64,000 bases of DNA, from NCBI GenBank assembly GCA_964016885.1, contig OZ024742.1, positions 194,742,001 through 194,806,000 on the forward strand. Reading direction: 5' to 3'. The stretch is from Eledone cirrhosa. Lineage: Eukaryota. A program made the translations under genes and the position numbers. This document shows positions 3,550 through 63,520 of the stretch, in pieces. The notes beneath the pieces are model-generated. The model ran no database searches and was not told the origin of the DNA. It saw only the letters and a program-made list of their open reading frames with translations. Each line of letters begins with the position of its first letter. Positions within the stretch are counted from its first letter, which is position 1.

Positions 3550-4466
<917 letters not shown>

Positions 4467-5102: not shown

Positions 5103-6119
5103 TTTCTTTTCGGTCATAACAATGTTTTCTTAAATACTATTTTTTATGTTTTTATTTCTTTTGTGAGATATGTATCTTATATGTGCATCAGATTCAGCAT
5201 ACTTATGTTTATCTTACGAGAAGACTCTTTCCAATACCAACCCCCGTGAAACTGCCTCAGGTTCTACGATGCAGACACGGTTTTTATTATGTTTCTATAT
5301 TTATCTAAAAATATTTTGTCATACGTTGATGTAGGAATGTTTTTTGATTTTTTTAAAAGTTACTAAACACCGACTTAATGAAATACATATATTATTAAAT
5401 CCTGGAATTTCTTTATTATTTTCATTAGAAATATAATGAATGTGTTTCCAACTTATAAATGCAAATATTGTTTAATGTTTTGTTTGTTTGATTGTTCATT
5501 TGTTTTAATTTTCATTTAAATTATTATTTTTAGAACATAGCATCAATTATATTATTAGATTGCAGACTAATGACTTTGGTTGATTTATATTAGAATGTCA
5601 GATTTTTTACGCAGTTCTGAGTTATATATTTGGTTTTCTACTTAAACTTGTGTATATTTTCTCGGTGGACTGAGAAGAATTCCCCGTTTATTTTGAGAAA
5701 GGATATTACCAACAACATGTTATGAATAAATCTTCAGATCAAACATTACCGAGGATTTAGAATATGGACTCTTCACCACTCACTCGCCCCTAGGATTATA
5801 CAAAATAAATCAATAAACAAATCAGTAAATAAATTAAAGAATAAATACATAGGAATAATTGAACAAGTTGCATTTTATTGTATTTTATTTAGTTTCATTT
5901 CTTATATAAAAGTCAGGTTTTGACACAAGAGTTCAATCTACACACTGTGTATTCGCATCAGCCCTACGTGTCGATATTGATCACGTTAGGGAGTCCATGA
6001 GTTAAACCATAAATATATCAGTTTTTCGTGAGTTTTTTAATATGAACCTTATGAATATATAAACATATTTTATGAAATTTCAAAGAAGCTAACAATCTAT
6101 TATTTGTTATATCTTTCAG

Positions 6120-6504
6120 ACAGTGTCAGTTGCAGTTTCGGTGTTAACACTTAGTGCCATATCTATTGAGCGCTGGTATGCCATTTGTCACCCACTTTCT
6201 TTCAAGAGTACCGCATCGCGGGCCCGTAACATCATTCTTACGATCTGGCTGTTGTCCGCGTGCGTGGCTTCTCCTGATCTGGTGACAGCACGAATCTACC
6301 GAAGCCTTCCAGCGAGATACAACCAGGTGAAATGGTTGGTATCCTGTCGACCAAGCTGGACCCAAAGATCCCAGTTCATATATCAGATGTTTTTATTCAA
6401 CGGACTCTACGTCCTACCGTTTTGTCTAATGGCTTTCACTTACACCCGAATCACTCTCGTTTTGTGGCGTGAAGATATACCCGGAGTCAATGAGACCGCT
6501 GGAG
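6120..6504 (+). CDS. Internal coding exon (TM3-ICL2-TM4-ECL2-TM5) of an orexin/allatotropin-receptor-like class A GPCR
   Basis: Acceptor ttatatctttcag|ACA at 6119/6120, donor GAG|gtgaga at 6504/6505; TVSVAVSVLTLSAISIERWYAICHPL matches the orexin/allatotropin receptor TM3 signature (xRWYAICHPL); ECL2 Cys (CRPSW); TM5 ...LYVLPFCLMAFTYTRITLVLW. Confidence 0.9.
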
Positions 6505-7097
6505 GTGAGACTAATATATTTATACTTCAAATTTCCTCTAATTAACGAAATCATTGTGATATTATTGATTAGGATAATGCTAAATAATTAATTGATTAAT
6601 TAATCTTCAAACGACACCTCTGGCTGAATCATATACTGTAAATATTAATTTGCATTCTTCAAGTGATCTATTATCTACATACTTTAAATGTAAAGTATGA
6701 CACATATATAGTAGGCGCCGTCATAGCCTATGGCTGTTCAAATGCTTTTAATCTTATTTTAAAATGAAATAATATTGTTGGTGAAATTTTCAGTGTGTGT
6801 TGGCATGAATAAATAACAAGGAGAGTGATAGGTATCGTTCTATTTTGGTATGTTTAAATGGAATTTGTACATAATTAGAAGCTTCTTGATATATGCTTTT
6901 AGACAGCTAATTGGGCATGCTACACTTCAAGTTCTGTGAATGAGATATTTTATTTACCAAAAAGAACTTTCACATGTATACATCGATAGATATATACATA
7001 CAGGCATACACACACGCATACACACACACATGCATATATATAATACGTATCTATGTATATATGAATGCATACAAGTATATGTATATATCTATATATT

Positions 7098-42095: not shown

Positions 42096-42350
42096 TACCG
42101 GCAACCCCACCAAGCTTGCTTGGTGAGGATGGTGATATTTGGACACCCTGTGCGATAAAATACAAGACCCGACAAAGGGCAGAGGTACTCCGGAGTGTCA
42201 ATAGGTAGTCCTTTCGATTCTCAGAGAGTGGGATTGGTCGAGTGCAAGGTCTTTACCCGCTTAAAATACCTTCAAAGCACAGGCATTGCTTGTTCGATAA
42301 TCTGACAAGTGATTGTAATACTCTTAGCATAGTTTGTAGCCATCATATAC
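42096..42350 (+). mobile_element. Old, diverged copy of the RTE-derived bipartite element
   Basis: ccggcaacccccaccaagcttgcttggtgaggatggtga...ggacaccctg...caaagggcagagg matches the - strand of 50920-51026; ends gtagccatcat. Confidence 0.6.
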
Positions 42351-43369: not shown

Positions 43370-43780
43370 ATGGTGGCTGCCAACTCGTTTTCGAGTACGG
43401 CCACTACTTTATATCCATGTAGGAGAACCCCTACCGATGCGCTGAACGAATGTGACTTTAGTCCAGCCAGCGACTTGAAAACTCTGGTACAAAGACTACA
43501 CTTGTGACCATTATTGACACATAGTGCAGGGCCCATGGTACCATGTGATGACAAGTGCAGAGAGATCTCCAGATATAAAGCAATGCCTGTGCTGTGAAGC
43601 TTTTATAGTGAGCAAAGGCACTGCACAAAGCCAGTCCCACTCTCTTAACCAAGATGATATTTACCAAAAAGAAGAACAGGTCAACATCATTGGATACCAT
43701 CAGGGTTGCAGGTGTTATATCAGAGTTTTCCTTCTCCTAGAATTCTGCCTTGACAAAGGCTAAGGGGTCATCTCTCCCGG
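43370..43780 (-). mobile_element. RTE-derived non-autonomous element, 5'-truncated copy
   Basis: Near-identical to 50494-50906; flanked by TA/CATA repeats. Confidence 0.85.
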
Positions 43781-44361
43781 TATATACATGTATATATACA
43801 TACACGTATATATACATATATATATACATACATGTATATATACATATATATACATACATACATATATACATACATACATACATACATATACATACATACA
43901 CATATATATACATACATACACACATACATACATACATACATATATACATACATACATATATACATATACATACATACATATACATACATATATACATATA
44001 CATACATATATATACATACATATACATATACATACATACACATATACATACATATACACATACATACATATACACATACATACATATACACATACATACA
44101 TATATATATACATACATATACACATACATACATACACATACATACATACATATACATACATACATACATACATACACATACATACACATACATATATACA
44201 TATACATACACATACATACATACATACATATACATACATACATATACATACACATATACATACATACATACATACATATACATACATATATACACATACA
44301 TACATATATACATATACATACATATACACATACATACATATATACATATACATACATATAC

Positions 44362-44715: not shown

Positions 44716-44928
44716 ATGGTGGCTGCCAACTCGTTTTCGAGTACGGCCACTACTTTATATCCATGTAGGAGAACCCCTACCGATGCGCTGAACGAGTGTG
44801 ACTTTTTAGTCCAGCCAGCGACTTGAAAACTCTGGTACAAACACTACACTTGTGACAATTACTGACACATAGTGCTGGGCCCATGGTACCATGTGAGGAC
44901 AAGTGCAGAGAGATCTCCAGATATAAAG

Positions 44929-44932
<4 letters not shown>
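44716..44932 (-). mobile_element. RTE-derived non-autonomous element, short 3' copy
   Basis: Encodes [25 protein letters not shown] (RTE-type terminal C2H2-like motif) followed by ...ggcagccaccat-(TATG)n. Confidence 0.85.
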
Positions 44933-45095: not shown

Positions 45096-45771
45096 TACAA
45101 ATAGTTAAAACAATGAAATTAAACAAAAAACGGTTAATTCATAGTAAAACTCATTATTTTACGATCGTTTCTGTGGGGTAGTTCCCCGTGTGTCCATTCT
45201 ATTATTGATGTAAAATATATTACAAAATATCATAGTAAGAAAATATACATACGTCTTCACTACCCGCCGTCCTCAGAAATAATGGGTTTTGTTTATTGAA
45301 GAATACAAAAAAACACATATGTGAATAAGTAACGTTTTATAAACTAGGTTGAAGTTGACCAATAGTAAGAATAGGAAGGGGCAATATAGATCCTTAAGTT
45401 GGTAGTAGTAGATGAATAAATAAGCAGTCAGGGGATGAGGTATCAAATGACTTTTAAGAAACGAAAGGAAGAATTTAGACATATTGTATATAAAAGTGTT
45501 GATGGTCAAAGAAGATTACAGTTGGAGGAAAAAGGAGTGCAGAAACGAGTGTGTTACAACAAGTAGAATAGTATAGAACAATCCTAAATATTTGTTATTT
45601 CTTTGTTGAGGGGAATAAATCGTTCTAAAAAAATATTGTTCTAAAAGAATAGAATAAGTAGAGGAATATAAATGGAACCAAAGGGAAGTAAAATTTAGAT
45701 GAAAAATAGATAAAATACTATATAGGTAAGAGAATCCTAAAGCTTGCGTAAGTATTTTATTGCACACACAC

Positions 45772-45828
<57 letters not shown>

Positions 45829-48515
45829 TACATACACGTACATACACACACACATATTATCTACACACACACACATATACATACACACATGTATATATAG
45901 AAGCACACACTTATGTATACACATACATATATATATATACATATACACCCACACACCCACACACACATTTTCTCCTATATCATTTTCTATGTTTGTTTAG
46001 TTGTATTTATAATATTTGAATGTCCTTCTAATTTTATGGTTACATGCTATAATTAATTCTTGTCTTTTATTTAATAGAGTGTCCTTCGATTTAGTAATTT
46101 AAAAAATTTCTTGGGAACATAGTACACATCCCTTCTATTGCCCTGATAAGAAAAGGCTCTCTTGAGAATCTTCCAAGTTAGGTTATAATTAATATTCTTC
46201 TTTTTACAATCATTAACAGCTTCTGCTAAAGAAGTGGTCTTAGCTAATTTTGTGTTTCGGAAACTGTGGGCGTGTGCATAAAATCTCGATTTAAATGGAT
46301 TAGAAGTGGATCCAATATAAGATTGATTAGTGGTGATTATACATTTATATACTATACTATTAATAAAGCAATTTCCATTTAAGGGGCAATTATCTTTTAC
46401 TCTACAATTACATGTACTATCCATATTCCCAATAATAGTGCTAGTATTTGTATTTACCTTTTTATATGGGAGAGAAGGGTTTACGGTTTGGTGATCACGG
46501 CCCGAAGGGTTGTTAGTTGGTGAAATTATACTGGATATAACGTTTATAGAATCATGGTTGTTTTGGAAGTTATTGGTTAGATTGGGTATGTAATTCTTAG
46601 TCCCTATTAAGGATGAGGAAGATGGTAGTTGGTTGTAGGCTGATGTATTGTGTTGGTGAGGTGAGTGGATGTAACTGGGGGATAGGTAATAATATTCTGG
46701 TTATGGCTGTAGTATTATTATAGTTAGTTTGTGTGTAGTGTGCTAGGGGTATACATGGAGATTTTTTACATTATAGATGTTACATGCACTTATTTTTTGT
46801 TGTATATTGCTCAATGTGGAGTAAGAAAATGTTACTGTATATCTGTTTAAGATTTGATGGTATTTATTTATGGTTAGGTGGGAAATTGTTATCAAAAATT
46901 GTAAAAAATGTTTAGGGATTTGGCCCATAGTTTGCAAGTTAAATGGAGCGTTATACCATGTTACGTTTCTTTTATGGTTTCTTAATAAAGAAAGCATTAT
47001 ATTGGGTATGTATAGAAGTATGAGGGTAGATTTTGTTATCAGATGATACTATAATATTGTTATTGTTATTAAGGGTGTGAACTAATTGTCTAGTAGAATT
47101 TTGAATTGTATTAGTTTTTAATTTATTGCTTTTTGTTTGATTTATAGAGGATATTGTGAGTTTCATTAATGGAGCCTAATTGATAGGACCTGGAATGTTG
47201 GTACTATTCTTGTTATTTACAGTAGTTCGGATATGTTTCTCTGATTTTTTGGATTGTAAGGATGCAGTTTGGTTAGGTTGAGGGATCAATGAAATAGGTA
47301 ATATATCATTAGGTTTGTTGTCAGAATTAAGATATAAGATGTTATTATTAACTGCTTTTTAAGATTAGTGGAGTTAGGTGTTTTCGTATGGTGAGTAGTA
47401 ATATTATTAGGTAGGTTATAGAAATATTCAGAAGCGTTAGGTTTGATGATTTTTAGAGAGTTTGTGTCATTCGTGTTAATGCGGGTATTAGGAGTTATGG
47501 TAGGATCCAGGTTTTTCGGTGCTTCATTGGTGGCACTAACTCTTTGGTGTTTTTTATGGTGTTTGTTAATTATGCTTGATTGTATGCTGGAGGTCATCAT
47601 CGTATTAGGCATGTAAAATATTTTAACCTTGTAGCCACTTCTAGGTAAAGCCTCATTAAAATAAGGTTCATTTTTATAGAATATTTCTTCATTAGATGAT
47701 AATTTAGATAATCTGAGTGAGATATTGTACACTAGTTTTTTAGTATGGAACTATATAGTATTTTATCTCTTTTTCATCTAAATTTTACTTCCCTTTGGTT
47801 CCATTTATATTCCTCTACTTATTCTATTTTTTTAGAACAATATTTTTTTTTAGAACAATTTATTCCCCTCAACAAAGAAATAACAAATATTTAGGATTGT
47901 TCTATATTATTCTACTTGTTGTAACACACTCGTTTCTGCACCCCTTTTCCTCCAACTGTAATCTTCTTTGACCATCAACACTTTTATATACAATATGTCT
48001 AAATTCTTCCTTTCGTTTCTTAAAAGTCATTTGATACCTCATCCCCTAACTGCTTATTTATTCACCTACTACTACCAACTTAAGGATCTATATTGCCCCT
48101 TCCTATTCTTACTATTGGTGAACTTCAACCTGGTTTATAAAACGTTACTTATTCATATATGTGGTTTTTTTGTATTCTTCAATAAACAAAACTCATTATT
48201 TCTGAAGACGGCGGGTAGTGAAGACGTATGTATATTTTCTTACTATGATATTTAGTAATATATTTTACATAGATCAATAATAGAATGGACATACGGGGAA
48301 CTACCCCCCAGAAACGATCGTAAAATAATGAGTTTTACTGAGAATTAACCGTTTTTTGTTTAATTTCATTGTTTTCAGTATTTGTAGTTTTGACTCTGTA
48401 TCCAATGAATTATATCGTTGAAAATTTTGTATTTTAAACTTTGCTTCACGACATCTTCTACATACGGATTACATTGAGTTATTCATACGGCTTAGACCCG
48501 AATTGGTAGATTTAA

Positions 48516-48789: not shown

Positions 48790-49595
48790 ATAATATTATA
48801 TTATATTCAGAGTTATAAACTCAAACAGTCCTTTACAATTAATTAGCTCAAAGAAAGAAGCATTTCTGAGCCGAGAAATACAAGTTAATATAAATTAATA
48901 TATGATAAACACGAAAGTGTTTGTATTGCAAAAGACGAAGTTAGCTAGAATGAATTAAACTAATTCAAATAAAATATGTTATTTCAATTAGTTTATTTCA
49001 TTCTAGCTAACTTCGTCTTTTGCAATACAAACACTTTCGTGTTTATCATATATTAATTTATATTAACTTGTATTTCTCGGCTCAGAAATGCTTCTTTCTT
49101 TGAGCTAATTAATTGTAAAGGACTGTTTGAGTTTATAACTCTGAATATAATATAATATTACGGCTCCTTTCTGTTGAGCTAATTTTTCAATCCCATATAA
49201 ACGGCTGTTATTTCTAGCGCCATAAATATGAGATAGCTAGTGAGCTGGAAAACCTCGTGCGTTTGCGCTAGTGAACCAGACCTTCTAAATTATTTAGAGG
49301 TGAAACATCCTAATTTTTCTGGATACCTGTTGAGAAGCACAGAAAATTGGAATATTTCACTTGTTATACTATCATTGCGAAACTTATTTAGATTTTGAAA
49401 TTCAAATGTATCTGCGGAACAGGTTTGGATTTTGAAATTTAAATTTGTCCAGGCATCATGGCTATTTGCCAATATGGGTTTGTTTTTATTGATTTAATAT
49501 TTTATTTGAATTAGTTTATTTCATTCTAGCTAACTTCGTCTTTTGCAATACAAACACTTTCGTGTTTATCATATATTAATTTATATTAACTTGTA
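48790..49595. repeat. Near-perfect palindrome (48790-48968 / 48985-49160) plus a third partial copy (49496-49595)
   Basis: Arms are nearly identical reverse complements; flanked by (TA)n. Confidence 0.85.
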
Positions 49596-50493: not shown

Positions 50494-51103
50494 ATGGTGG
50501 CTGCCAACTCGTTTTCGAGTACGGCCACTACTTTATATCCATGTAGGAGGACCCCTACCGATGCGCTGAACGAGTGTGACTTTTCAGTCCGGCCAGCGAC
50601 TTGAAAACCCCGGTACAAACACTACACATGTGACCATTATTGACACATAGTGCTGGGCCCATGGTACCATGTGAGGACAAGTGCAGAGAGATCTCCAGAT
50701 ATAAAGCAATGCCTGTGCCGTGAAGTTTTTATAGTGAGCAAAGGCACTGCACAAAGCCAGTCCCACTCTCTTAACCAAGATGATATTTACCAAAAAGAAG
50801 AACAAGTCAACATCATTGGATATCATCAGGGTTGCAGGTGTGATATCAGAGTTTTCCTTCTCCTAGAATTCTGCCTTGACAAAGGCTAAGGGGTCATCTT
50901 TCCCGGTGATTTTGGATGGCCATTGACTCTTAAGAGCTCCTTTGCCCTTTGACAGGTTTTGTTTTTAGTCCTGCAGGATGTCCAAAGTCACCCTCCTCAC
51001 CAAGAAACCTTGGTGGGGTTGCCAGTTTAGTCGCCAACGTCCCGACCATGGGACAGGTTGTACTGGGATACATGTTACCAGTAGCACCAACTGGTGACCT
51101 GAC
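50494..51103 (-). mobile_element. Full-length (~610 bp) bipartite RTE-derived non-autonomous retroposon
   Basis: 5' part carries the RTE 5'UTR-type motif CTAGGAGAAGGAAAACTCTGA (50846-50866, -); 3' part carries the RTE C-terminal CxxC...SLAG..SH remnant and a (TATG)n tail; no RT. Confidence 0.8.
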
Positions 51104-51232
51104 ATAATATACATACATACATATATACATACATACACATATATATACATACATACATACACATATACATACATACATATACCCATACATACATACATAC
51201 ATATATACATACATACACATACACATACATAC

Positions 51233-52076
51233 AAAGTTGTGCATGGATACTTGAGGCGTAAAACACAGACCATAGAGGGGATAAACCACTCAAAAAGCCT
51301 GGCATGGAGTTCCGACAAGTTTATGACATCACACCTTGAGGGATATCTCTATGCAATACAGGAACAAGAACTCCCTACCAAATATCTGCTGCACGAAAGA
51401 GGAGGGCCAGCAGCTGACAATAAATGTAGGCTATGTAAAACAAAGTCGAGGATGTAAGCCACATTGTTGCCAGCTGCGAAAGAATGTCATCTCGCTACTA
51501 CCTCCCCATGAGACACGATGGGATAGCTAGAACCATCTGGAACGCACTTCGGAAAACAAAATCAACAACAAACGAGGAAGAATATATTGAGACAGATGGC
51601 ACTAAGGAATACTGGTGGAACCTGAAAATAAAAACTGCCACCAAATTAAAGCACAACCGGCCTGATATTGTAGTTTGGGACCACACATTGAAAACGTGTT
51701 CTGTTGTGGAGATCAGCTGCCCACTTGATGTAAACGTTGTCAGAAAAATACAGGAGAAGGAGGACATCTACGGACCATTGATGAGGAGTTTACAAATCCA
51801 GTATCCAAGATACACCTTTAGCTTCATACCCATCATTATTGGTGCTACGGGTTATATACCAACCCGCTTGGACCAAAGTATGACTGAACTTGGATTTGCT
51901 GACAAAAAGCGCAGCTCCCTAATTCATAGTCTACAAATGGCTGCGATAGCTGGCACCTTCAAAATTTGCAAAACATTCTTGCGATTCAAGGGATGACAAT
52001 TTCTTTTCTTTTACAACCTTGCCACCAGGAAGGTGGCCGGTCAAAAAATATACTCAAAATTAAGAGAAAGAGAAAA
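51233..52076 (+). mobile_element. 5'-truncated R4/Dong-like copy (CCHC, RLE, 3'UTR), 1-bp deletion near 51445
   Basis: Near-identical to 55888-56733; both ends in (CATA)n. Confidence 0.95.
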
Positions 52077-52500: not shown

Positions 52501-52580
52501 CACACACATACATACATACATATATATACATACATACATATACATATACATACATACACACATACATACATACATACATA

Positions 52581-52679
52581 AAATGGGAAGGTGGCAAGGT
52601 TGTAAAAGAAAAGAAATTGTCATCCCTTGAATCGCAAGAATGTTTTGCAAATTTTGAAGGTGCCAGCTATCGCAGCCAT
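52581..52679 (-). mobile_element. Inverted fragment of the R4-like element 3' end
   Basis: Reverse complement of ~56593-56682. Confidence 0.9.
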
Positions 52680-52712
52680 ACATACATACACACATACATA
52701 CATACATACATA

Positions 52713-55700
52713 AAATGGCGACCGTTGTGGTCAGTGTCCGATAATCGGACGTGTGTAATTACGGCTTACATGAAGGCAACATACCATATATTGGAAAAAG
52801 TTGAGCTACATTACGCGGTAAGATTACATACAATAATTCTACATAAATGTTTGAACTGTGTGTTGTAAAACACCTATTTATATGAACGATACATACACTT
52901 ATGATATATGAACGATACATACACTTTAACATATAAATGCAACGTTGTTATATTACATTTATAAAGAAATATTACATTTATATAAAACACAGTTGTAGAA
53001 TTAAAAACTAACTGAAAAGAAATATTACTCAAGCTGTGAATAACTTTAAATTTGATTCTGACAGAACTTTGTCGTAACTTTTAAAGATCATCGACTATTT
53101 TAAAAAATAAATACGAAATATTAGTGAATAGACGAACTCATCATGGCAAAAAGTACAAGTCTCCTTCGACCAAATCGCAATTACAACCGTTGTACACAGT
53201 GGACCTACGAGCTTAACAAAGTATTATATGAAGCATACAAACAATCTGAACCCCAAAAGTTCGGTTTTATGCAAAGGCTAAAAACTTTATGGAACTCCAA
53301 ACACCCAGAATTAGACTTTTCTCCAAAGCATTTAAATGAACAGGCAAAACGTATCATTAGATGTAAATTGATACATCTAACGGAATCGAGTGATACTACA
53401 AATACAGCCCTTGTAGACAACCACCCCACCTCCACTGACAGACAAAGAGAATGTCCAGCTAAATCTAACAGTGAACAGCTCACCAACAATTTTGCTGAAA
53501 TTCATCCCACTTCCACTGAAGAACAGCGAGAAAGGTCAGCTGACTCTAGTAGTAATTGTCACCACATCAACAACGAGGCTGAAATTCATGACTCTACTGA
53601 ACAAACAGAGCACCAAAAACTTGTGGGCTCCCTACAAGTGATATGGAATGATATGTTTCAAGAGATACACAGCCTTAATGTGAGTGACAGACCATACAAC
53701 ACTAGAGTCAGTAAAGAACCCACTAAATTGGAATTGGAAGCGGTGAACGAAATAGCTGGCAATTATCTGAAGGCTATACGATCTAAAGGTGTAGAAACGA
53801 CATTTGAAACGCTTAATGTTTTGTTATATGTTTCAGCTGTCACATTGCTAGCATATAACACACATCCAAAACCACGCAATCAAGATACAAACAGAAAGCC
53901 TGAACCAGCGTGGATGCGAAATTTAAAAACCAAAATTTTGTCCCTGAGACGAAGTATCTCACACATCGCAGTCGTTATGAAATGCAACATAGAGAGCAAC
54001 TTCACACAACACCAGGAAGACCTAAAGAAAAAGTTAGAGAGAAGATTTGGAGATACAAAATTTAAAACTTTGAACTCCAAATTACACCAGTTGAAACAAC
54101 AACTCACAGCTACAACAGAAAGACTAAAATATAAGTCAACAGCACATAAACGACAAGTGCTAAATAGATTGTTTGCCAGAGATCCTAAATCAGTTTATCG
54201 CAGCTTCGGTGGCAAAAGCTCAATCTCTGTAAATGACACCCCTTCAAAAGAACAGGTTGAGAGCTACTGGAGATCTGTATGGGAAACGGATGACGGATTC
54301 AACAGACAAGCTAATTGGCTAAAAGAACTGGAACAGGACTACTGCCAACATGTTCAGACAAAACAATATGACATAGATGGGTCAATACTGGAAACAGCTC
54401 TACAGAAAATGTCGAATAGGAAATCACCAGGCCCAGACCTCATTACAGGATACTGGTTGAAGAATTTCACTTTCTATCGGCAAGATCTCATACGGCTGTT
54501 TACAGAAACCATTAAGGGCACACAAGAACTGCCCAGATGGTTATCAACTGCCTCTACTCTCCTCATTCCCAAAAATAGCCAAACCACCCTTGCTAAAAAT
54601 TACCGCCCAATTGCCTGCCAAAACATCATGTATAAATTATATACTGGGTGCCTTAACCTGTTCTTACAGGATCACTGTGCTACCAACAACATCATAACAC
54701 CTGAGCAAGCTGGTGGAAAGAGGGAGGTGTGGGGTTGCATAGATCACCTACTAACTAACAAAATGATTCAGGAAAAAACAACAAAGAATCGCAGAAACAT
54801 GACTGTCGTGTGGCTGGACTATCAAAAAGCATTTGATAGTGTACCTCATGGGTGGATTGTTAAGGCTTTACAGTTAGCTAAAGTCCCACAACCATTGGTA
54901 GCTGCTGTTGAACGCCTGACCAAGAACTGGTACACCAGTTTGATCCTTAGAGGTGAGAGGGAGCAGGTTAGGACTGATAAGATACATTACCAGAAGGGCA
55001 TCTTTCAGGGTGATAGCTTGTCGGTGCTACTCTTCGTTCTCTCACTGAATCCACTATCTTACTTACTCAGGAAACAAGGTCGACAAAGAAGTGGGACCAG
55101 AAGTATCTCCCATCTTTTCTTTGTTGATGACCTGAAGTTGTATGGGCCAAATATCAATGACATCAAGAAACAATTGGACCTCATTACACAATTTTCAACC
55201 GACATCAAAATGAAATTTGGTGAGTCCAAGTGTGCATATTTGGCAGTAAAACGTGGAAGAGCTGTGCCCTCCTCTAGAAATCTAGAGATGAACGGCCTGA
55301 CAATACAACCTCTGCAGTCAGGTGACAACTACAGATATCTTGGACAGGATGAGAATGTCAGATATGATGGACCCATAAATAAGGAAAAAACCAGAACTGA
55401 ATACCTCAGAAGAGTAAAGAAAATATGGTCATCAGAACTGTCAGCATACAACAAATACATTGCCCACAATACTTATGCTGTGCCAATTCTAACGCCAACA
55501 TTTGGCCTACTGAACTGGTCATTGCAAGAACTAAGTGAGATGGATGTTAGAACTCGAAAACTTCTCAGTGTTACTGGGAACTTTAACATCAATGGTGATG
55601 TGGATAGGCTATACTTCTCACGCAAGGAAGGTGGCCGGGGTCTAAAATCAATATTAACAACATATGAGACCCGGATAGTGACACTGAAGCAACACCTTCA

Positions 55701-56733
55701 ACAGAGGAAAAAGGTTGGCAACCATCTTGCCCAGGTTTATGACCATGAAAAAAGAAATATCATTAGAATAGCGACTGATCTGGAGGAGAGATATGGAATA
55801 AAGCCCGATATAAATCTCTCACCCAGAGAAATCGGAAGATCCTATTCAATGTTCAAACAAGAAAAAAAAATTGACCAATTTACAGAAAAAGTTGCGCATG
55901 GATACTTGAGGCGTAAAACACAGACCATAGAGGGGATAAACCACTCAAAAAGCCTGGCATGGAGTTCCGACAAGTTTATGACATCACACCTTGAGGGATA
56001 TCTCTATGCAATACAGGAACAAGAACTCCCTACCAAATATCTGCTGCACAAAAGAGGAGAGCCAGCAGCTGACAATAAATGTAGGCTATGTAAAACAAAG
56101 ATCGAGGATGTAAGCCACATTGTTGCCAGCTGCGAAAGAATGTCATCTCGCTACTACCTCCCCATGAGACACGATGGGATAGCTAGAACCATCTGGAACG
56201 CACTTCGGAAAACAAAATTAACAACAAACGAGGAAGAATATATTGAGACAGATGGCACTAAGGAATACTGGTGGAACCTGAAAATAAAAACTGCCACCAG
56301 ATTAAAGCACAACCGGCCTGATATTGTAGTTTGGGACCACACATTGAAAACGTGTTCTGTTGTGGAGATCAGCTGCCCACTTGATGTAAACGTTGTCAGA
56401 AAAATACAGGAGAAGGAGGACATCTACGGACCATTGATGAGGAGTTTACAAATCCAGTATCCAAGATACACCTTTAGCTTCATACCCATCATTATTGGTG
56501 CTACGGGTTATATACCAACCCGCTTGGACCAAAGTATGACTGAACTTGGATTTGCGGACAAAAAGCGCAGCTCCCTAATTCATAGTCTACAAATGGCTGC
56601 GATAGCTGGCACCTTCAAAATTTGCAAAACATTCTTGCGATTCAAGGGATGACAATTTCTTTTCTTTTACAACCTTGCCACCAGGAAGGTGGCCGGTCAA
56701 AAAAATATACTCAAAATTAAGAGAAAGAGAAAA
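52713..56733 (+). mobile_element. Full-length R4/Dong-clade site-specific non-LTR retrotransposon inserted in (CATA)n
   Basis: 5' junction (CATA)n|aaatggcgacc, 430-bp 5'UTR, single ORF, ~80-bp 3'UTR ending aagagaaagagaaaa|cata. Confidence 0.9.
53143..56652 (+). CDS. RT plus restriction-like endonuclease polyprotein (1169 aa), R4/Dong clade
   Basis: N-terminal QWTYELN...W...HP...LNEQAKRI domain; KSPGPD, YRPIACQNIMYK, EQAGG, WLDYQKAFDSVPH, GIFQGDSLS, HLFFVDDLKLY, KFGESKC, YRYLG, GGRGL; CRLC..IEDVSHIVASC knuckle; RHD; RPDIVVWD...VVEISCP...KEDIY RLE; no stops. Confidence 0.95.
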   Translation: MAKSTSLLRPNRNYNRCTQWTYELNKVLYEAYKQSEPQKFGFMQRLKTLWNSKHPELDFSPKHLNEQAKRIIRCKLIHLTESSDTTNTALVDNHPTSTDRQRECPAKSNSEQLTNNFAEIHPTSTEEQRERSADSSSNCHHINNEAEIHDSTEQTEHQKLVGSLQVIWNDMFQEIHSLNVSDRPYNTRVSKEPTKLELEAVNEIAGNYLKAIRSKGVETTFETLNVLLYVSAVTLLAYNTHPKPRNQDTNRKPEPAWMRNLKTKILSLRRSISHIAVVMKCNIESNFTQHQEDLKKKLERRFGDTKFKTLNSKLHQLKQQLTATTERLKYKSTAHKRQVLNRLFARDPKSVYRSFGGKSSISVNDTPSKEQVESYWRSVWETDDGFNRQANWLKELEQDYCQHVQTKQYDIDGSILETALQKMSNRKSPGPDLITGYWLKNFTFYRQDLIRLFTETIKGTQELPRWLSTASTLLIPKNSQTTLAKNYRPIACQNIMYKLYTGCLNLFLQDHCATNNIITPEQAGGKREVWGCIDHLLTNKMIQEKTTKNRRNMTVVWLDYQKAFDSVPHGWIVKALQLAKVPQPLVAAVERLTKNWYTSLILRGEREQVRTDKIHYQKGIFQGDSLSVLLFVLSLNPLSYLLRKQGRQRSGTRSISHLFFVDDLKLYGPNINDIKKQLDLITQFSTDIKMKFGESKCAYLAVKRGRAVPSSRNLEMNGLTIQPLQSGDNYRYLGQDENVRYDGPINKEKTRTEYLRRVKKIWSSELSAYNKYIAHNTYAVPILTPTFGLLNWSLQELSEMDVRTRKLLSVTGNFNINGDVDRLYFSRKEGGRGLKSILTTYETRIVTLKQHLQQRKKVGNHLAQVYDHEKRNIIRIATDLEERYGIKPDINLSPREIGRSYSMFKQEKKIDQFTEKVAHGYLRRKTQTIEGINHSKSLAWSSDKFMTSHLEGYLYAIQEQELPTKYLLHKRGEPAADNKCRLCKTKIEDVSHIVASCERMSSRYYLPMRHDGIARTIWNALRKTKLTTNEEEYIETDGTKEYWWNLKIKTATRLKHNRPDIVVWDHTLKTCSVVEISCPLDVNVVRKIQEKEDIYGPLMRSLQIQYPRYTFSFIPIIIGATGYIPTRLDQSMTELGFADKKRSSLIHSLQMAAIAGTFKICKTFLRFKG

Positions 56734-56832
56734 CATATACATAACATACATATATACATACATATACATACATACATACATACATATACATACATGCATA
56801 CATATATACATATATATACACATATACATACA

Positions 56833-56894
<62 letters not shown>

Positions 56895-56918
56895 CATACA
56901 TACACACATATACATACA

Positions 56919-56950
<32 letters not shown>

Positions 56951-57057
56951 CACACATACATACATACATATATACATACATACATACATACATATACACA
57001 CATACATACACATATACATACATACATACATACATACACACATACATACATACACAC

Positions 57058-57101
<44 letters not shown>

Positions 57102-57103
<2 letters not shown>

Positions 57104-57415
57104 GGTGGCTGCCAACTCGTTTTCGAGTACGGCCACTTCTTTATATCCATGTAGGAGAAGTGCTGAACGAGTGTGACTTTTTAGTCCAGCCAGTGACTTG
57201 AAAACTCTGGTACAAACACCACACTTGTGACAATTATTGACACATAGTGCTGGGCCCATGGTACCATGTGAGGACAAGTGCAGAGAGATCTCCAGATATA
57301 AAGCAATGCCTGTGCCGTGAAGCTTTTATAGTGAGCAAAGGCACTGCACAAAGCCAGTCCCACTCTCTTAACCAAGATGATATTTACCAAAAAGAAGAAC
57401 AAGTCAACATCATTG
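57102..57415 (-). mobile_element. RTE-derived non-autonomous element, 5'-truncated
   Basis: Matches 50494-50818 with a small deletion; CATA flanks. Confidence 0.85.
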
Positions 57416-57540
57416 CATACATACATACATACATACATACATACATACATACATACATACATACATAAATGCATGCATACATACATACATACATACATAC
57501 ATACATACATACATACATACATACATACATACATACATAC

Positions 57541-59221
57541 AGCAGATGAAAAAGTTCAGCAACTATCTTGCCCAGGTCTATGAGCATGAAGAAAATAATA
57601 TCATTAGGATAACCACTGATCTGGAGGAGAGAAATAGGATAAGGCCTCTCCCGCGGAAATTGGAAGATCCTATTCAATGTTGGAACAAGACAAAAAATTG
57701 TACATGGGTACCTGAGACGGAAAGCAGAGACCATAGTGGGAATAAATCATTTGATAGGCTGTTATATTGGTCATAAGTGTAACCAGTGATACTGATAATA
57801 ATGGTTGCCTGACTAATTATAAAAGTAATTATAACCGTTATAGTAATAATAATGATACTAAACATCCTGGTATTGATGGAAAAATATAATAATATAAGAA
57901 TATAGTAATATATAGTACATATAATATTGCATAATAATCCATATACATACATGCATACATATACGTGTGTATGTACTGACACAAGTGGATGGTTGCATAC
58001 AGAACAGGAACAGGCTGGGATGCGACCGGGAGATTAATACCGGGAGATTAAGTGTTTAAAAAATATATATAGCGGCACTGCCGTGAATATTTGAGTAAAA
58101 TTACAAATAGGTGTCTATAGATTATCTATAAAGGAAGAATTCTGTTGAGCTTTCCTAGTTGCGTAGTTTCGCTACTATGAGGTATATGAAATGCACAAAT
58201 AGTGATTTCAGCCTCCTTAGTGAGAGGGTACTGGGATAATTGCTGGCCTTGTGCCAACAGTAGAAACAATTATTTGATACATTTATACTCCGTCACTCAT
58301 TATCACCTACCTGGGATAAACTACTGACGTGTGGTGCTTTGAGTCGCTAGAAGCTGCTTATTCTCTGGAAGTTACGTCGTCACAACCAAGACAAACAACA
58401 CTCTTCTGCAATATATATATTATAAAAATAACAGGAGGCTGGCATGGAGTTCCGACAAGTTTATGACATCCCACCTTGAGGATATCTCTATACAATACAG
58501 GAACAAGAAACCCCTACTAAATATCTGCTACACGAAAGAGGAGACTCATCAGTCGATAATGAATGTAGGCTTTGTAAAACTAAGATCGAAGATGTTAGCC
58601 ATATCGTTGATAACTGCGAAAGTATGTCGTCACGTTACTATCTTCCTATGAGACACGATGTGATAGCTAGAACCATCAGGGTCGCACTTAAGAAAACAAC
58701 ATTTAAAAAAATGATGAGGAATATGTTGAGATAGATGGCACTAAAGAATACTGGTGGAACCTGAAAATAAAGACTGCCACCAAATTAAAACACAACAGGC
58801 CTGATATTGTTGTTTGGACCACACATTGAAAACGTACTCTGTTGTGGAGATCAGCTGCCCACTTCATGTCAACGTTGTAAGAAAAATACAAGAGAATGAG
58901 GACATCTACAGGCCATTGATGAAGAGTTTTCAGATCCAGTATCCAAGATACATTTTCGGCTTCATACCCATCATTATTGGAGCTATAGGTTATATACCAA
59001 CCCGTTTGGACCAAAATATAACTGTACTTGGATTTGTGGACAAAGAGCGCAGCTCCCTAATTCATAGACTACAAATCGCTGCGATAGCCTGGCACCTTCA
59101 AAATTTGCAAAACATACTTGAGATTCAAGGGATGACAATTTCTTTTCTTTTACAACCATGCCACCAGGAAGGTGGCCAGTCAAAAATGTATTCGATTAAG
59201 AGAAATTAAGAGAAAGAGAGA
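57541..59221 (+). mobile_element. Older, degenerate R4-like copy interrupted by a ~690-bp insertion (~57750-58436)
   Basis: 57541-57748 aligns to ~55700-55945 and 58437-59221 to ~55952-56733 with many substitutions and frameshifts. Confidence 0.85.
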
Positions 59222-59241
59222 CATTCATGCATACATACATG

Positions 59242-59862
59242 ATGATGGCTGTCCCCTCGTTATCGAGTATGGCCATTGCACGATATAACATTATTAATAA
59301 TTATTAATTAATTCTATCGTGCAATGCCTGTGTTTGAAGATAGTATTTAAAGTGAGGAAAGATTGTGCACTGAGCCAATCCCACTCTCTGAGCGACAGTA
59401 GCTATAACCCGAAAAGAAGAAAAGATCAACATCATCGGTAGCTACTGTGCCGCAGGTTTTATACCGGAGTTATCCCAGTTTCCTGAGTTGCATTCTCCTA
59501 GAAGAATGCCTTGACAAAGGTTAGGGTTCCTTCACTCCCAGTGGTTTAACCGCGCGATCGGGTGTCCAGCCCGACTATTTCTATGTCACCGCGCATATAC
59601 ATACACATGCACCCATGTATATACACATATACATACATATGTACATGTGTGTATACATATTTACACACTTTTGTATGGCCGTTGACTCTTAATGGTTTTT
59701 CCGCCATTTGTCAGGTTCTGATTTTTGTCCTGCGGGTTGTCCAGAATCACTCTCCTCACCAACTAAACTTGGTGGGGTTGCCGGTTTAGTCACCGACGAC
59801 CCGACCATGCGACAGGTTGTACTGGGTTACATGTTACAAGTAGCACTCAAGAGTGACCCGAC
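59242..59862 (-). mobile_element. Older full-length relative of the bipartite RTE-derived element
   Basis: Colinear with 50494-51103 (ctcctagaa, gccttgacaaagg, ggtggggttgcc, caggttgtactggg, gtgacccgac); internal CA/TA-rich insert at ~59545-59675. Confidence 0.8.
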
Positions 59863-59922
59863 ATACATACATACATACATACATACATACATACATACAT
59901 ACATACATACATACATACATAC

Positions 59923-60333
59923 ATGGTGGCTGCCAACTCGTTTTCGAGTACGGCCACTACTTTATATCCATGTAGGAGAACCCCTACCGATGCGCTGAAC
60001 GAGTGTGACTTTTTAGTCCAGCCAGCAACTGGTACAAACTCTGGTACAAACACTACACTTGTGACAATTATTGACACAGTGCTGGGCCCATGGTACCATG
60101 TGACGACAAGTGCAGAGAGATCTCCAGATATAAAGCAATGCCTGTGCCGTGAAGCTTTTATAGTGAGCAAAGGCACTGCACAAAACCAGTCCCACTCTCT
60201 TAACCAAGATGATATTTACCAAAAAGAAGAACAAGTCAACATCATTGGATACCATCAGGGCTGCAGGTGTTATATTAGAGTTTTCCTTCTCCTAGAATTC
60301 TGCCTTGACAAAGGCTAAGGGGTCATTTCTCCC
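59923..60333 (-). mobile_element. RTE-derived non-autonomous element, 5'-truncated
   Basis: Near-identical to 43370-43778; pure (CATA)n on both sides. Confidence 0.85.
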
Positions 60334-60410: not shown

Positions 60411-62275
60411 TACAGTTAGCTAAAGTCCTACAACCATTAGTAGCTGCTGTTGAACGCCTGACCAAGAACTGGTACACCAATTTGATGCTTAGAGGTGAGA
60501 AGGAGCAGGTTAGGACTGATAGGATACACTACCAGAAGGGCATCTTTCAGGGTGATAGCTTGTCAGTACTACTCTTTGTTCTCTCACTGAATCCACTATC
60601 TTACCTACTCAGGAAACAAGGTGGACAAAGAAGTGGGCCCAGAAGTATCTCCCATCTTTTCTTTGTTGATGACCTGAAGTTGTATGGGCCAAATATCAAT
60701 GACATCAAGAAACAATTGGACCTCATTACACAATTTTCAACCGACATCAAAATGAAATTTGGTGTGTCCAAGTGTGCATATTTGGCAGAAAAACGTGGAA
60801 GAGCTGTGCCCTCCTCTAGAAATCTAGTGATGAACGGCCTGACAATACAACCTCTGCAGTCAGGTGACAACTACAGATATCTTGGACAGGATGAGCATGT
60901 CAGATATGATGGACCCATAAATAAGGAGAGAACCAGAACTGAATACCTCAGAAGAGTAAAAAAAATATGGTCATCAGAACTGTCAGCATACAACAAATAC
61001 ATTGCCCACAATACCTATGCTGTGCCAATTCTAACGCCAACATTTGGCCTACTGAACTGGTCATTGCAAGAACTAAGTGAGATGGATGCTAGAACTCGAA
61101 AACTTCTCAGTGTTACTGGGAACTTTAACATCAATGGTGATGTGGATAGGCTATACTTCTCACGCAAGGAAGGTGGCCGGGGTCTAAAATCAATATTAAC
61201 AACATATGAGACCCGGATAGTAACACTGAAGCAACACCTTCAACAGAGGAAAAAGGTTGGCGACCATCTTGCTCAGGTTTATGAGCATGAAAAAAGAAAT
61301 ATCATTAGAATAGCGACTGATCTGGAGGAGAGATATGGAATAAAGCCTGATATAAATCTCTCACCCAGAGAAATCGGAAGATCCTATTCAATGTTCAAAC
61401 AAGAAAAAAAAATTGACCAATTTACAGAGAAAGCTGTGCATGGATACTTGAGGCGTAAAACGCAGACCATAGAGGGGATAAACCACTCAAAAAGCCTGGC
61501 ATGGAGTTCCGACAAGTTTATGACATCACACCTTGAGGGATATCTCTATGCAATACAGGAACAAGAACTCCCTACCAAATATCTGCTGCACAAAAGAGGA
61601 GGGCCAGCAGCTGACAATAAATGTAGGCTATGTAAAACAAAGATCGAGGATGTAAGCCACATTGTTGCCAGCTGCGAAAGAATGTCATCTCGCTACTACC
61701 TCCCCATGAGACACGATGGGATAGCTAGAACTATCTGGAACGCACTTCGGAAAACAAAATTAACAACAAACGAGGAAGAATATATTGAGACAGATGGCAC
61801 TAAGGAATACTGGTGGAACCTGAAAATAAAAACTGCCACCAAATTAAAACACAACCGGCCTGATATTGTAGTTTGGGACCACACATTGAAAACGTGTTCT
61901 GTTGTGGAGATCAGCTGCCCACTTGATGTAAACGTTGTCAGAAAAATACAGGAGAAGGAGGACATCTACGGACTATTGATGAGGAGTTTACAAATCCAGT
62001 ATCCAAGATACACCTTTAGCTTCATACCCATCATTATTGGAGCTACGGGTTATATACCAACCCGCTTGGACCAAAGTATGACCGAACTTGGATTTGCGGA
62101 AAAAAAGCGCAGCTCCCTAATTCATAGTCTACAAATGGCTGCGATAGCTGGCACCTTCAAAATTTTCAAAACATTCTTGCGATTCAAGGGATGACAATTT
62201 CTTTTCTTTTACAACCTTGCTACCAGGAAGGTGGCCGGTCAAAAAAATATACTCGAAATTAAGAGAAAGAGAAAA
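60411..62275 (+). mobile_element. 5'-truncated R4-like copy, reading frame still open to the stop at 62194
   Basis: Aligns to 54869-56733 with few substitutions; (CATA)n both sides. Confidence 0.95.
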
Positions 62276-62292
62276 CATACATACATACATAC

Positions 62293-62787
62293 ATGATGAT
62301 GGGTGCAACTCGATTTCGGTTGATACTTAAGCATCACAGACGTGGCTTTTTAGTCTTGCTAGTGACTTGCCTATGACCAACAATACCATGCAACGCAATA
62401 ATGTCCTATCAAGCGATGACTGGGCTTGAATTTTATTGAAGTGAGGAAAGGCTTTGCACGGAGCCAATCCTACTCTCTTAACATCGAATTCATTTGCCCC
62501 AAACGAAATGGTCTACATCATAGGATGCAAACGCAGTCGCAGGTTTTATATCAGAGTTACTTTCTAGAGACATTCCTTAATGAAGACTAGGAATAACTCG
62601 CTCCTCAAAAAATCAAAACAACTTTATTGGATGGCCGTGGACTCTCCTTAGTTCCTCCGCCTTTTGACGGGTTTTGTTTTTCATCCAGCAGGATGTGCAA
62701 AATCACCCTCCTCACCAAGCAAGCTTTGTGGGGTTACCGGTTTAGACGCTGACGAACCGACCATGCACAGGTTGTACTGGATTACAT
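62293..62787 (-). mobile_element. Strongly diverged copy of the bipartite RTE-derived element
   Basis: gagccaatcctactctcttaac, caggatgtgcaaaatcaccctcctcaccaag, cgaccatgcacaggttgtactgg. Confidence 0.7.
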
Positions 62788-62837
62788 ACCTACCTGCCTA
62801 CACTCATACATACATGCATACATACATACATACATAG

Positions 62838-63520
62838 AAACGATAGCCCCGATAATAAACACATTAAAAGCTACAGCACAGTGGAAGACATAGATATACA
62901 TAATGTGAAAGAGTGCTGGTGGAATGTTCCAGTAAAAACCCCAATAAAATGCAGGCATAACAGACGAGATTTTATGATATGGGACGGGGAAAAGAAGGCA
63001 TGCACAGTAGTGGAAGTTAGCTGCCCAGCAGATGCCAATATAATATCAAAGATTAGCGAAAAGGAGGATATGTATGCAGAACTAATGAGAAATTTGCAGA
63101 TACTCCACCCTGATTATACCTTCAGATTTATGCCTGTGATTATTGGGGCACTGGGATATGTTAGTAACTGCCTCAAAATCTTGAGAAGCTTCACAGGAAC
63201 AGAAAGAACACAACTAGCTAGGAAATTACAAGTACAATTCATTAATGGAACAGTAAAAATATGTAAAACGTGCTAAACATTTTGCATCTAATAACTGCAT
63301 ATACACATGTACAGATACTAAGCATACACACATGCACACGTACAACTCAGAACATACACATCCGCACATACAATAACATCCATATCTACACATGCAGACA
63401 TGCATACATATCTACCTAGTTGATGTTGTGTAAATTCCAATGAGAGAGTCTTGTGTCTATGTTAGAAACCGACTCTCTCTCTATTGGTAAAACTTTGTGA
63501 AATTATAAAACCAGAAGAAC
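62838..63520 (+). mobile_element. 3' fragment of a second, divergent R4-clade family in (CATA)n
   Basis: WWNVPVKT...HNRRDFMIWD...TVVEVSCP...KEDMY...MRNLQI..P.YTF.F.P.IIGALGY...GTVKICKT; different 3'UTR ending accagaagaa|catacata. Confidence 0.85.

Follow-up and report, generated by a model that had tools for sequence, protein, structure and literature searches.

Insertion into microsatellites has been described for several groups of retrotransposons that lack long terminal repeats (non-LTR retrotransposons). Dong of Bombyx mori, DongAg, DongBg and the ostracod elements Dong1 and Dong2 are reported to target (TAA)n, and this group combines one open reading frame (ORF), in which a reverse transcriptase (RT) is joined to a restriction-like endonuclease (RLE), with a divergent Myb/SANT-like N-terminus lacking zinc fingers (PMC7998251, PMC3812793). 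An element with the same single ORF, RT and RLE, no zinc fingers and a predicted Myb/SANT-like N-terminus was found in a 64,000-nt stretch of the genome of Eledone cirrhosa (contig OZ024742.1, positions 194,742,001 to 194,806,000 of the forward strand; referred to below as the window), but unlike Dong it is inserted in CATA-type arrays and falls on a branch separate from its TAA-flanked relatives. It probably belongs to the same clade as R4 and has its domain plan; R4, however, targets large-subunit rDNA with a short duplication, whereas this element is not inserted in a large-subunit rRNA gene and no rRNA was found in the window. The R2 elements (R2Bm and R2Tg) are the closest solved structures by sequence and fold and provide the model of target-primed reverse transcription (TPRT), but differ in their low identity (about 17%), their N-terminal zinc fingers and their 28S target. 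Waldo elements (WaldoAg1, WaldoAg2 and WaldoFs1) have as their reported target ACAY microsatellites, a class that takes in (CATA)n (PMC3812793). Unlike the Eledone element, with its C-terminal restriction-like nuclease, they carry an apurinic/apyrimidinic endonuclease (APE) and belong to the R1 clade; a target common to both would be convergent.

A first-pass annotation of the window had described an uninterrupted 1,169-amino-acid (aa) ORF with all RT motifs, a CCHC knuckle and the RLE motifs, a description that was borne out in full. Each motif was located in the frame, namely WLDYQKAFD (residues 557-565), QGD (622-624) and FVDD (660-663) in the RT, C980/C983/H992/C997 in the knuckle, and RHD (1009-1011), PD (1059-1060), E1075 and K1091 in the RLE. 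Pfam returned RVT_1 with an E value of 1e-24, its matches being RT and zf-RVT only and none an APE endonuclease. No CxxC precedes the RT and no N-terminal zinc finger is conserved across 23 relatives. An AlphaFold2 model built from a 93-row alignment (mean predicted local distance difference test score 89.4) contains a disordered linker and a separate three-helix domain at residues 22-74, and its top Foldseek matches are R2 proteins (E 3e-34). One RT loop is about six residues shorter in the element family than in the aligned relatives, 22 of 22 of which possess those residues. The protein has no exact match in the protein cluster collection, and its closest named relative is a protein of Argonauta hians (66% over the RT region).

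The window holds four copies of the element family (A1 to A4, A2 being the full-length one), an inverted 90-bp piece and A5, the one copy belonging to a second family (Table 1). CATA-type arrays of the plus strand host all five insertions, in one orientation; none of the five lies in (TA)n (57 clusters), (CA/TG)n (16 clusters) or TAA repeats. Positions with at least three CATA in the 20 nt upstream make up 3.3% of the window, and CATA/TATG accounts for 25% of its counted microsatellite bases, which gives naive p values of 4e-8 and 9e-4 for five out of five insertions in such arrays, values that overstate the significance, as the insertions are grouped in a single region. The four truncated copies have four different 5' start points, each with an array on its 5' side, and since the arrays adjoin different truncation points they represent the target and not a tail. 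Microhomology at the 5' junctions amounts to 1 nt at A1 and 4 nt at A4.

The near-identical truncated siblings mentioned in the first-pass annotation are A1 and A4, and the lack of poly(A) that it claimed for the 3' ends was likewise upheld. Its 3' junction, GAGAAAA followed by CA(T/C)A, holds for three of three young copies, but the old copy A3 ends otherwise and has a degenerate 3' flank. As to the (CATA)n target it proposed, the CATA-type arrays and the fixed orientation stand, but the flanks are degenerate and CATA is mixed with CA and TA units; several insertion-site arrays, including those at A1 and A2, are such mixed CATA/CA/TA runs, and the downstream flank of A1 starts with CACA. The A at the 5' end of A2 is common to element and repeat, so that the element may instead begin at 52712. 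The predicted stem-loop of the 3' untranslated region (UTR) is more stable than its shuffles (z = -3.7, with 0 of 200 equally stable); at the 5' ends of four of five elements tested, folding was no better than in shuffles. A3 is interrupted by about 680 bp of unrelated sequence (57750-58427). At 52545-52720 a 33-bp CATA stretch followed by AAAATGG is present twice; between the two lie 90 bp of the element's 3' region in inverted form, and the piece at 52581-52679 is either an aborted 5' end with a template switch or an assembly artefact.

Table 1. Positions in the window of the element, its parts, its copies and the associated RTE-like element (UTR, untranslated region; DPE, downstream promoter element; X1, a sequencing run).
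Feature	Position	Strand	Remarks
Full-length element, copy A2	52713..56733	+	4,021-bp non-LTR retrotransposon; 5' end at 52713 recurs as a repeat-flanked loose end in 2 X1 contigs
5' flanking CATA array	52680..52712	+	
5' junction sequence AAAATGGCG	52712..52720	+	position computed
5' UTR	52713..53142	+	430 nt; 7 upstream ATGs
DPE-like motif GGACGTGT	52747..52754	+	sole RGACGTGY within the element; putative promoter role
Single ORF, 1,169 aa	53143..56652	+	no internal stop
N-terminal three-helix domain, aa 22-74	53206..53364	+	predicted Myb/SANT-like, without zinc finger
Reverse transcriptase core, aa 475-726, FVDD active site	54565..55320	+	
CCHC zinc knuckle, aa 980-997	56080..56133	+	
Restriction-like endonuclease core	56167..56427	+	RHD, PD, E1075, K1091, Y1095
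3' UTR	56653..56733	+	81 nt; terminal GAGAAAA, without poly(A); predicted stem-loop
3' flanking CATA-type array	56734..57102	+	stops at the tail of the RTE-like element
Sibling A1	51234..52076	+	5'-truncated, 98.8%; one frameshift; CATA-type flanks on both sides
Element's first 7 bases, then inverted 90-bp copy of 3' region	52581..52679		between two similar CATA arrays; strand switch at the 3' UTR hairpin
Old sibling A3	57540..59219	+	5'-truncated, 77-88%, frameshifted; CATA array at 5' side
Sibling A4	60411..62275	+	5'-truncated, 97.7%, open frame; CATA flanks on both sides
Copy A5 of second family	62837..63519	+	5'-truncated; 48% aa identity over the endonuclease; CATA flanks on both sides
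RTE-like repeated element, about 610 bp	43370-43781, 44716-44932, 50494-51105, 57102-57419, 59923-60333	-	
RTE-like element, older variants	59239-59864, 62293-62787		
RTE-like element, diverged piece	42097-42291		in opposite orientation

Relatives were collected from metagenomes (36 loci), genome contigs (27 loci) and viral contigs (1 locus, the three viral searches having given 0, 0 and 1). The type of flank differs among them. Two loci with 45-46% aa identity to the element, L005 and L006, have nearly pure CATA at both ends; seven carry CTTA at one or both ends (L002, L003, L007, L008, L010, L011 and L013); L016 has TAA at both ends, and L039, L048, L057 and L064 adjoin TAA, these TAA-flanked relatives being about 30% identical to the element. 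L019, L020 and L046 are inserted in 28S rDNA. The CTTA relatives provide four distinct 3' ends, with the junction always just before C. A (TAA)n run at the 5' end of L007, which probably lies within the ORF linker, was not scored as a target, and repeat-derived peptides in stored proteins, tried as a clue to the flanks, gave only two chance matches in 246. Most of the remaining metagenome loci are short fragments.

In the main tree, built from 42 selected RT regions, the element, the Argonauta protein, L005 and L006 form a clade with 97/93 support, which is nested in a 100/100 branch holding all seven CTTA rows, while the five TAA rows and the three 28S rows fall outside this branch. The four target states require three changes on the tree, and two further trees agree; rows of R2, NeSL, Hero and CRE are in none of them. 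Against APE-type outgroups, a 55-row clade that includes the element is supported at 99. Whole-protein bit scores are 384 for the TAA-flanked L016, 301 and 248 for the 28S elements L019 and L020, and 55-106 for the solved R2 proteins, placing the element, by this measure of sequence similarity, nearer to the TAA-flanked and 28S R4-site elements than to R2. The R4/Dong assignment made at first pass is thus favoured by the single ORF with RT, CCHC and C-terminal RLE, the lack of an APE and the bit scores, with the limit that membership was tested with target-defined stand-ins and not with named references. Overall, the sequence data support an intact R4/Dong-type RLE retrotransposon, and the element likely belongs to a branch in which the known TAA target gave way to repeats of four letters.

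Some further features of the relatives deserve mention. The 28S insertion point of L019, L020 and L046 is reportedly the R4 site, and these R4-type elements carry 5' folds resembling the hepatitis delta virus (HDV) ribozyme (clear in L019, at 101-177, and in L020, at 126-203; near 115 in L046), with a 14-bp duplication in L020. In L042, a long (TTC)n run (3554-3823) is located upstream of an R4-like RT match, at a distance of about 680 bp, and may represent a further target type. Animal-type retrotransposons also occur, at L037-L063, in contigs filed as bacterial genomes, an indication that those assemblies are contaminated with host DNA.

The N-terminal domain modelled alone gives a confident three-helix structure whose neighbours, headed by TRF1 and including Zeste, NgTRF, LUX and ISWI, are mostly Myb/SANT domains, although the similarity is weak (best Z 5.8); these neighbours agree with the divergent Myb/SANT-like N-terminal domain reported for R4/Dong (PMC7998251). 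Helix 3 of this domain reads LNE(Q/R)AKR in three CATA-flanked elements and LRDQA or QRDKA in the CTTA-flanked ones, and this difference is a candidate for target recognition that should be taken as a lead only.

Junction evidence was drawn from the window and from the reads of 4 of 24 listed runs. Six of the 24, originating from two studies, contain at least half of the sampled words, runs with a small share were not used, and no RNA run containing the element sequence is among those listed. In run X1 the summed depth is about 11,000 at the 5' end and reaches 505,000 at the 3' end, a roughly 45-fold gradient, as expected for a high-copy, 5'-truncated family. The loose-end results rest on the 24 rows listed out of 1,201, of which three have CATA-type flanks, at 55998 (445 reads, run X24), 56737 (X3) and 52713 (X1), and a joint in X1 connects the 3' end via CATAC to a copy truncated at 55377. 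The remaining listed rows, apart from two described below, seem to stem from diverged relatives or from library ends. Large loose-end piles in X24 (agreement near 0.35), which coincide with read-end piles of a restriction site-associated DNA (RAD) library, were dropped as presumed library artefacts.

From the anatomy, the copies and their flanks, orientation, 5' truncation and selection, and a flank type that follows the RT tree, we infer a nick site, domain roles and a promoter, and we regard TPRT with a protein-directed choice of the CATA-type repeat and its polarity as the probable route of insertion. A single protein would recognize the repeat, nick the TATG strand and copy its own RNA into the nick. 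This RNA would start at the 5' end or slightly upstream of it, probably driven by a TATA-less promoter that uses a DPE-like motif (see below), and its structured 3' UTR would be bound by the protein, the Myb-like N-terminus and the endonuclease together choosing repeat and polarity. The 3' junctions of the CTTA relatives just before C suggest a bottom-strand nick after G, and by analogy the nick may fall after G in (TATG)n. Reverse transcription would begin at GAGAAAA, perhaps aided by pairing of read-through CATA with the primer; early stops would be frequent, with the cDNA joined to the upstream array via 1-4 nt of microhomology, and any target duplication would be concealed within the repeat. 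RTE-like elements with ATGT tails would supply and share the arrays, so that both elements accumulate here.

Several observations weigh against this reading. The window insertions lie within one 21-kb stretch in which the unrelated RTE-like element shows the same co-location, and therefore the sites are not independent. The N-terminal domain has no Foldseek match at an E value of 0.001, and, the CATA clade being a single lineage, the correlation of helix 3 with the target amounts to one event. Two long members of the element's branch, L001 and L004, lack an array at the ends of their contigs. As for the reads, the X1 repeat flank before the full-length 5' end at 52713 terminates in (CA)n, the consensus of eight X1 contigs that leave the element at 56730 is mixed and rich in CA (agreement 0.52), and the flank ahead of 54815 in one X3 contig is not a repeat. 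Owing to these mixed read flanks, the target is best described as CATA-rich or ACAY-like.

The most serious competitor, which we nevertheless judge unlikely, is a loosely specific endonuclease combined with an RNA whose read-through CATA tail pairs with the nicked TATG strand, as in tailed RTE/CR1 elements. The lack of poly(A) and the direct passage of each young 3' end into the repeat would fit this reading, the RTE-like element of the window, with its ATGT tail, shows the same co-location, and a habit of tailing the RNA would be inherited along the tree just as a protein specificity would. What speaks for the protein instead is the fixed phase of the CTTA junctions, together with the conserved Myb-like domain (predicted, from a weak match), the mostly sequence-specific behaviour reported for RLE elements (PMC4640811) and the 28S-site relatives, which show that the clade can be protein-directed. 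A looser purine-pyrimidine target, ACAY or any CA/TA mix, in which CATA would dominate through the RTE tails, seems less probable still. It would accommodate the mixed arrays at A1 and A2 and the CA-rich read flanks of X1, but the abundant (TA)n and (CA/TG)n clusters of the window received none of the five insertions, L005 and L006 are flanked by nearly pure CATA, and the CACA start downstream of A1 fits ACAY and not a general CA/TA target. It is very improbable that the arrays were made by the element itself, through a tail or slippage, or that the stack of copies is an assembly artefact, even though the CATA clusters are one-sided (16 on the plus strand versus one TATG run, with 15 of the 16 within 42.9-63.8 kb) and the inverted piece upstream of A2 is odd. 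A 3' tail cannot explain arrays upstream of four truncation points in the window and two in other runs, the copies differ by 1-12% with signatures of selection, and the junctions recur in independent data.

Aside from target choice, the 5' end of the branch merits attention. HDV-like ribozymes are reported for the 5' ends of R4 and B. mori Dong, the one of B. mori Dong being self-cleaving (PMC3774820). Our own HDV descriptor matched none of six tetranucleotide-branch elements, but only two of the three 28S controls (L019 and L020), with one weak match in five TAA-associated 5' regions; because it missed L046, absence of a ribozyme is not claimed. A search of the element's 5' end against Rfam gave no ribozyme. 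All six branch members, that is, the element and five of five relatives with a visible 5' junction, carry GGAYGYR at most 46 nt from the 5' array, and in the three CATA elements this motif is the sole RGACGTGY in about 4 kb. RGACGTGY is the reported downstream promoter element (DPE) consensus of Drosophila long interspersed element (LINE) promoters (PMC2377424), the usual position of a DPE being +28 to +32 (PMC4748587). The motif was not found in the first 110 nt of the five TAA-associated regions, and a relaxed match occurs in L046. In five of five relatives an A preceded by a pyrimidine stands 27 nt upstream of the motif, either in the repeat or in repeat-like sequence, a phase whose chance probability, given shared ancestry, is up to about 1 in 8. 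The window element deviates, as its base at this position is a G that lies within the element itself; a YY1-like site may serve it instead, and the junction sequence AAAATGGCG resembles a YY1 site. A tentative and rather doubtful scenario is that an animal branch of R4/Dong moved from TAA to (CTTA)n and then to (CATA)n, the recognition helix of its Myb-like domain changing to match, and that the ribozyme was replaced by a split promoter composed of a DPE in the element and an initiator in the repeat. If this were true, the target repeat would serve as landing site and also provide one half of the promoter, and repeat bases at the start of the RNA would guide 5' joining.

The element was called probably active at first pass, and the intact ORF, the youth of the copies and purifying selection between subfamilies agree with this. 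A2 and A1 have three private changes each over 847 nt, corresponding to about 1 million years at the rate taken from PMC13282606. Comparison of A2 with A4 (18 synonymous and 22 non-synonymous codons) gave a ratio of non-synonymous to synonymous rates (dN/dS) of 0.34 (p 0.0008), and the same ratio was obtained with A3 (p 5e-6); A2 against A1 gave no signal of purifying selection (1 synonymous, 5 non-synonymous). Counting against activity of this particular copy are its private amino-acid changes relative to A4 and the reads, which comprise at least seven residues (R606, R647, K749, D867, A918, E973 and R1053), none of them catalytic. Judged from its sequence, the family appears to have been mobile in the recent past, and activity of A2 itself is something we can only infer.

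With regard to its surroundings, the RTE-like element has a short C-terminal frame with a CxxC...H motif, variable 5' truncation, frequent CATA on both sides and a minus-strand 3' end with an (ATGT)n/(ATG)n tail, ATGT being found at seven ends; it resembles a non-autonomous RTE derivative. It probably seeds the arrays used, on the opposite strand, by the R4/Dong element, and in the 42.9-63.8 kb region CATA arrays seem to have been struck again and again by the two elements. Between the arms of an inverted repeat of 637 bp (95.8%; 45096-45725 and 47751-48386) lie broken frames that match GIY-YIG weakly (E 0.01), and this unit is probably a Penelope-like remnant with inverted terminal repeats. 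By eye, a stretch of about 150 bp (about 49010-49160) recurs in inverted and direct form at 48800-48960 and 49490-49590 and resembles a miniature inverted-repeat transposable element or a fold-back element. An exon of an orexin/allatotropin-type receptor lies at 6093-6545, with 6108-6497 being 95% identical to an Octopus bimaculoides orexin receptor, and this gene may contain the element cluster or lie close to it. By this exon and the Argonauta relative of the ORF, the host belongs to Octopus or is closely related to it.

Dong-R4 elements are already known from cephalopods. A full-length Dong consensus with all domains but no sign of recent activity has been reported for O. bimaculoides (Petrosino 2022, PMC9115989), and for O. 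vulgaris five recently active Dong-R4 families (Bonar 2026, PMC13282606) with 1,129 near-full-length insertions covering 4.73 Mb, at about 4.2 kb each (PMC13282606); abundance of Dong-R4 in coleoids has also been described (Marino 2022, PMC8967140; PMC10294476). The available portions of these four sources (PMC9115989, PMC13282606, PMC8967140 and PMC10294476) give neither a target sequence nor junctions for the octopus elements, and the supplementary files of PMC9115989 that were searched contain no match to the element. The element is probably one of the published octopus Dong-R4 families or a close orthologue, by comparison of descriptions, and is probably already present in a repeat library; the target and its lineage alone may be undescribed. 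In the literature searched, no R4/Dong element was given CATA or CTTA as its target, a search that did not cover Repbase or Dfam. Microsatellite targeting as a class and active Dong-R4 in Octopus are therefore known, and what is new is the grouping of the CATA-flanked L005 and L006 with the element, the CTTA-flanked relatives and the DPE-like 5' motif common to the branch.

How RLE retrotransposons change their target is an open question that has been studied almost solely in R2. Three related groups, with TAA, CTTA and CATA flanks, now differ from one another by small steps, the latter two by one base and a candidate recognition helix, and would offer a natural test case for how such enzymes select their landing site. 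With an intact 1,169-aa protein, an 81-nt 3' UTR and defined ends, the Eledone element lends itself to direct tests and would add a compact TPRT enzyme that does not target rDNA. For the host, the data suggest that an abundant octopus LINE family is steered into microsatellites, where insertion would also hide its copies from short-read polymorphism callers.

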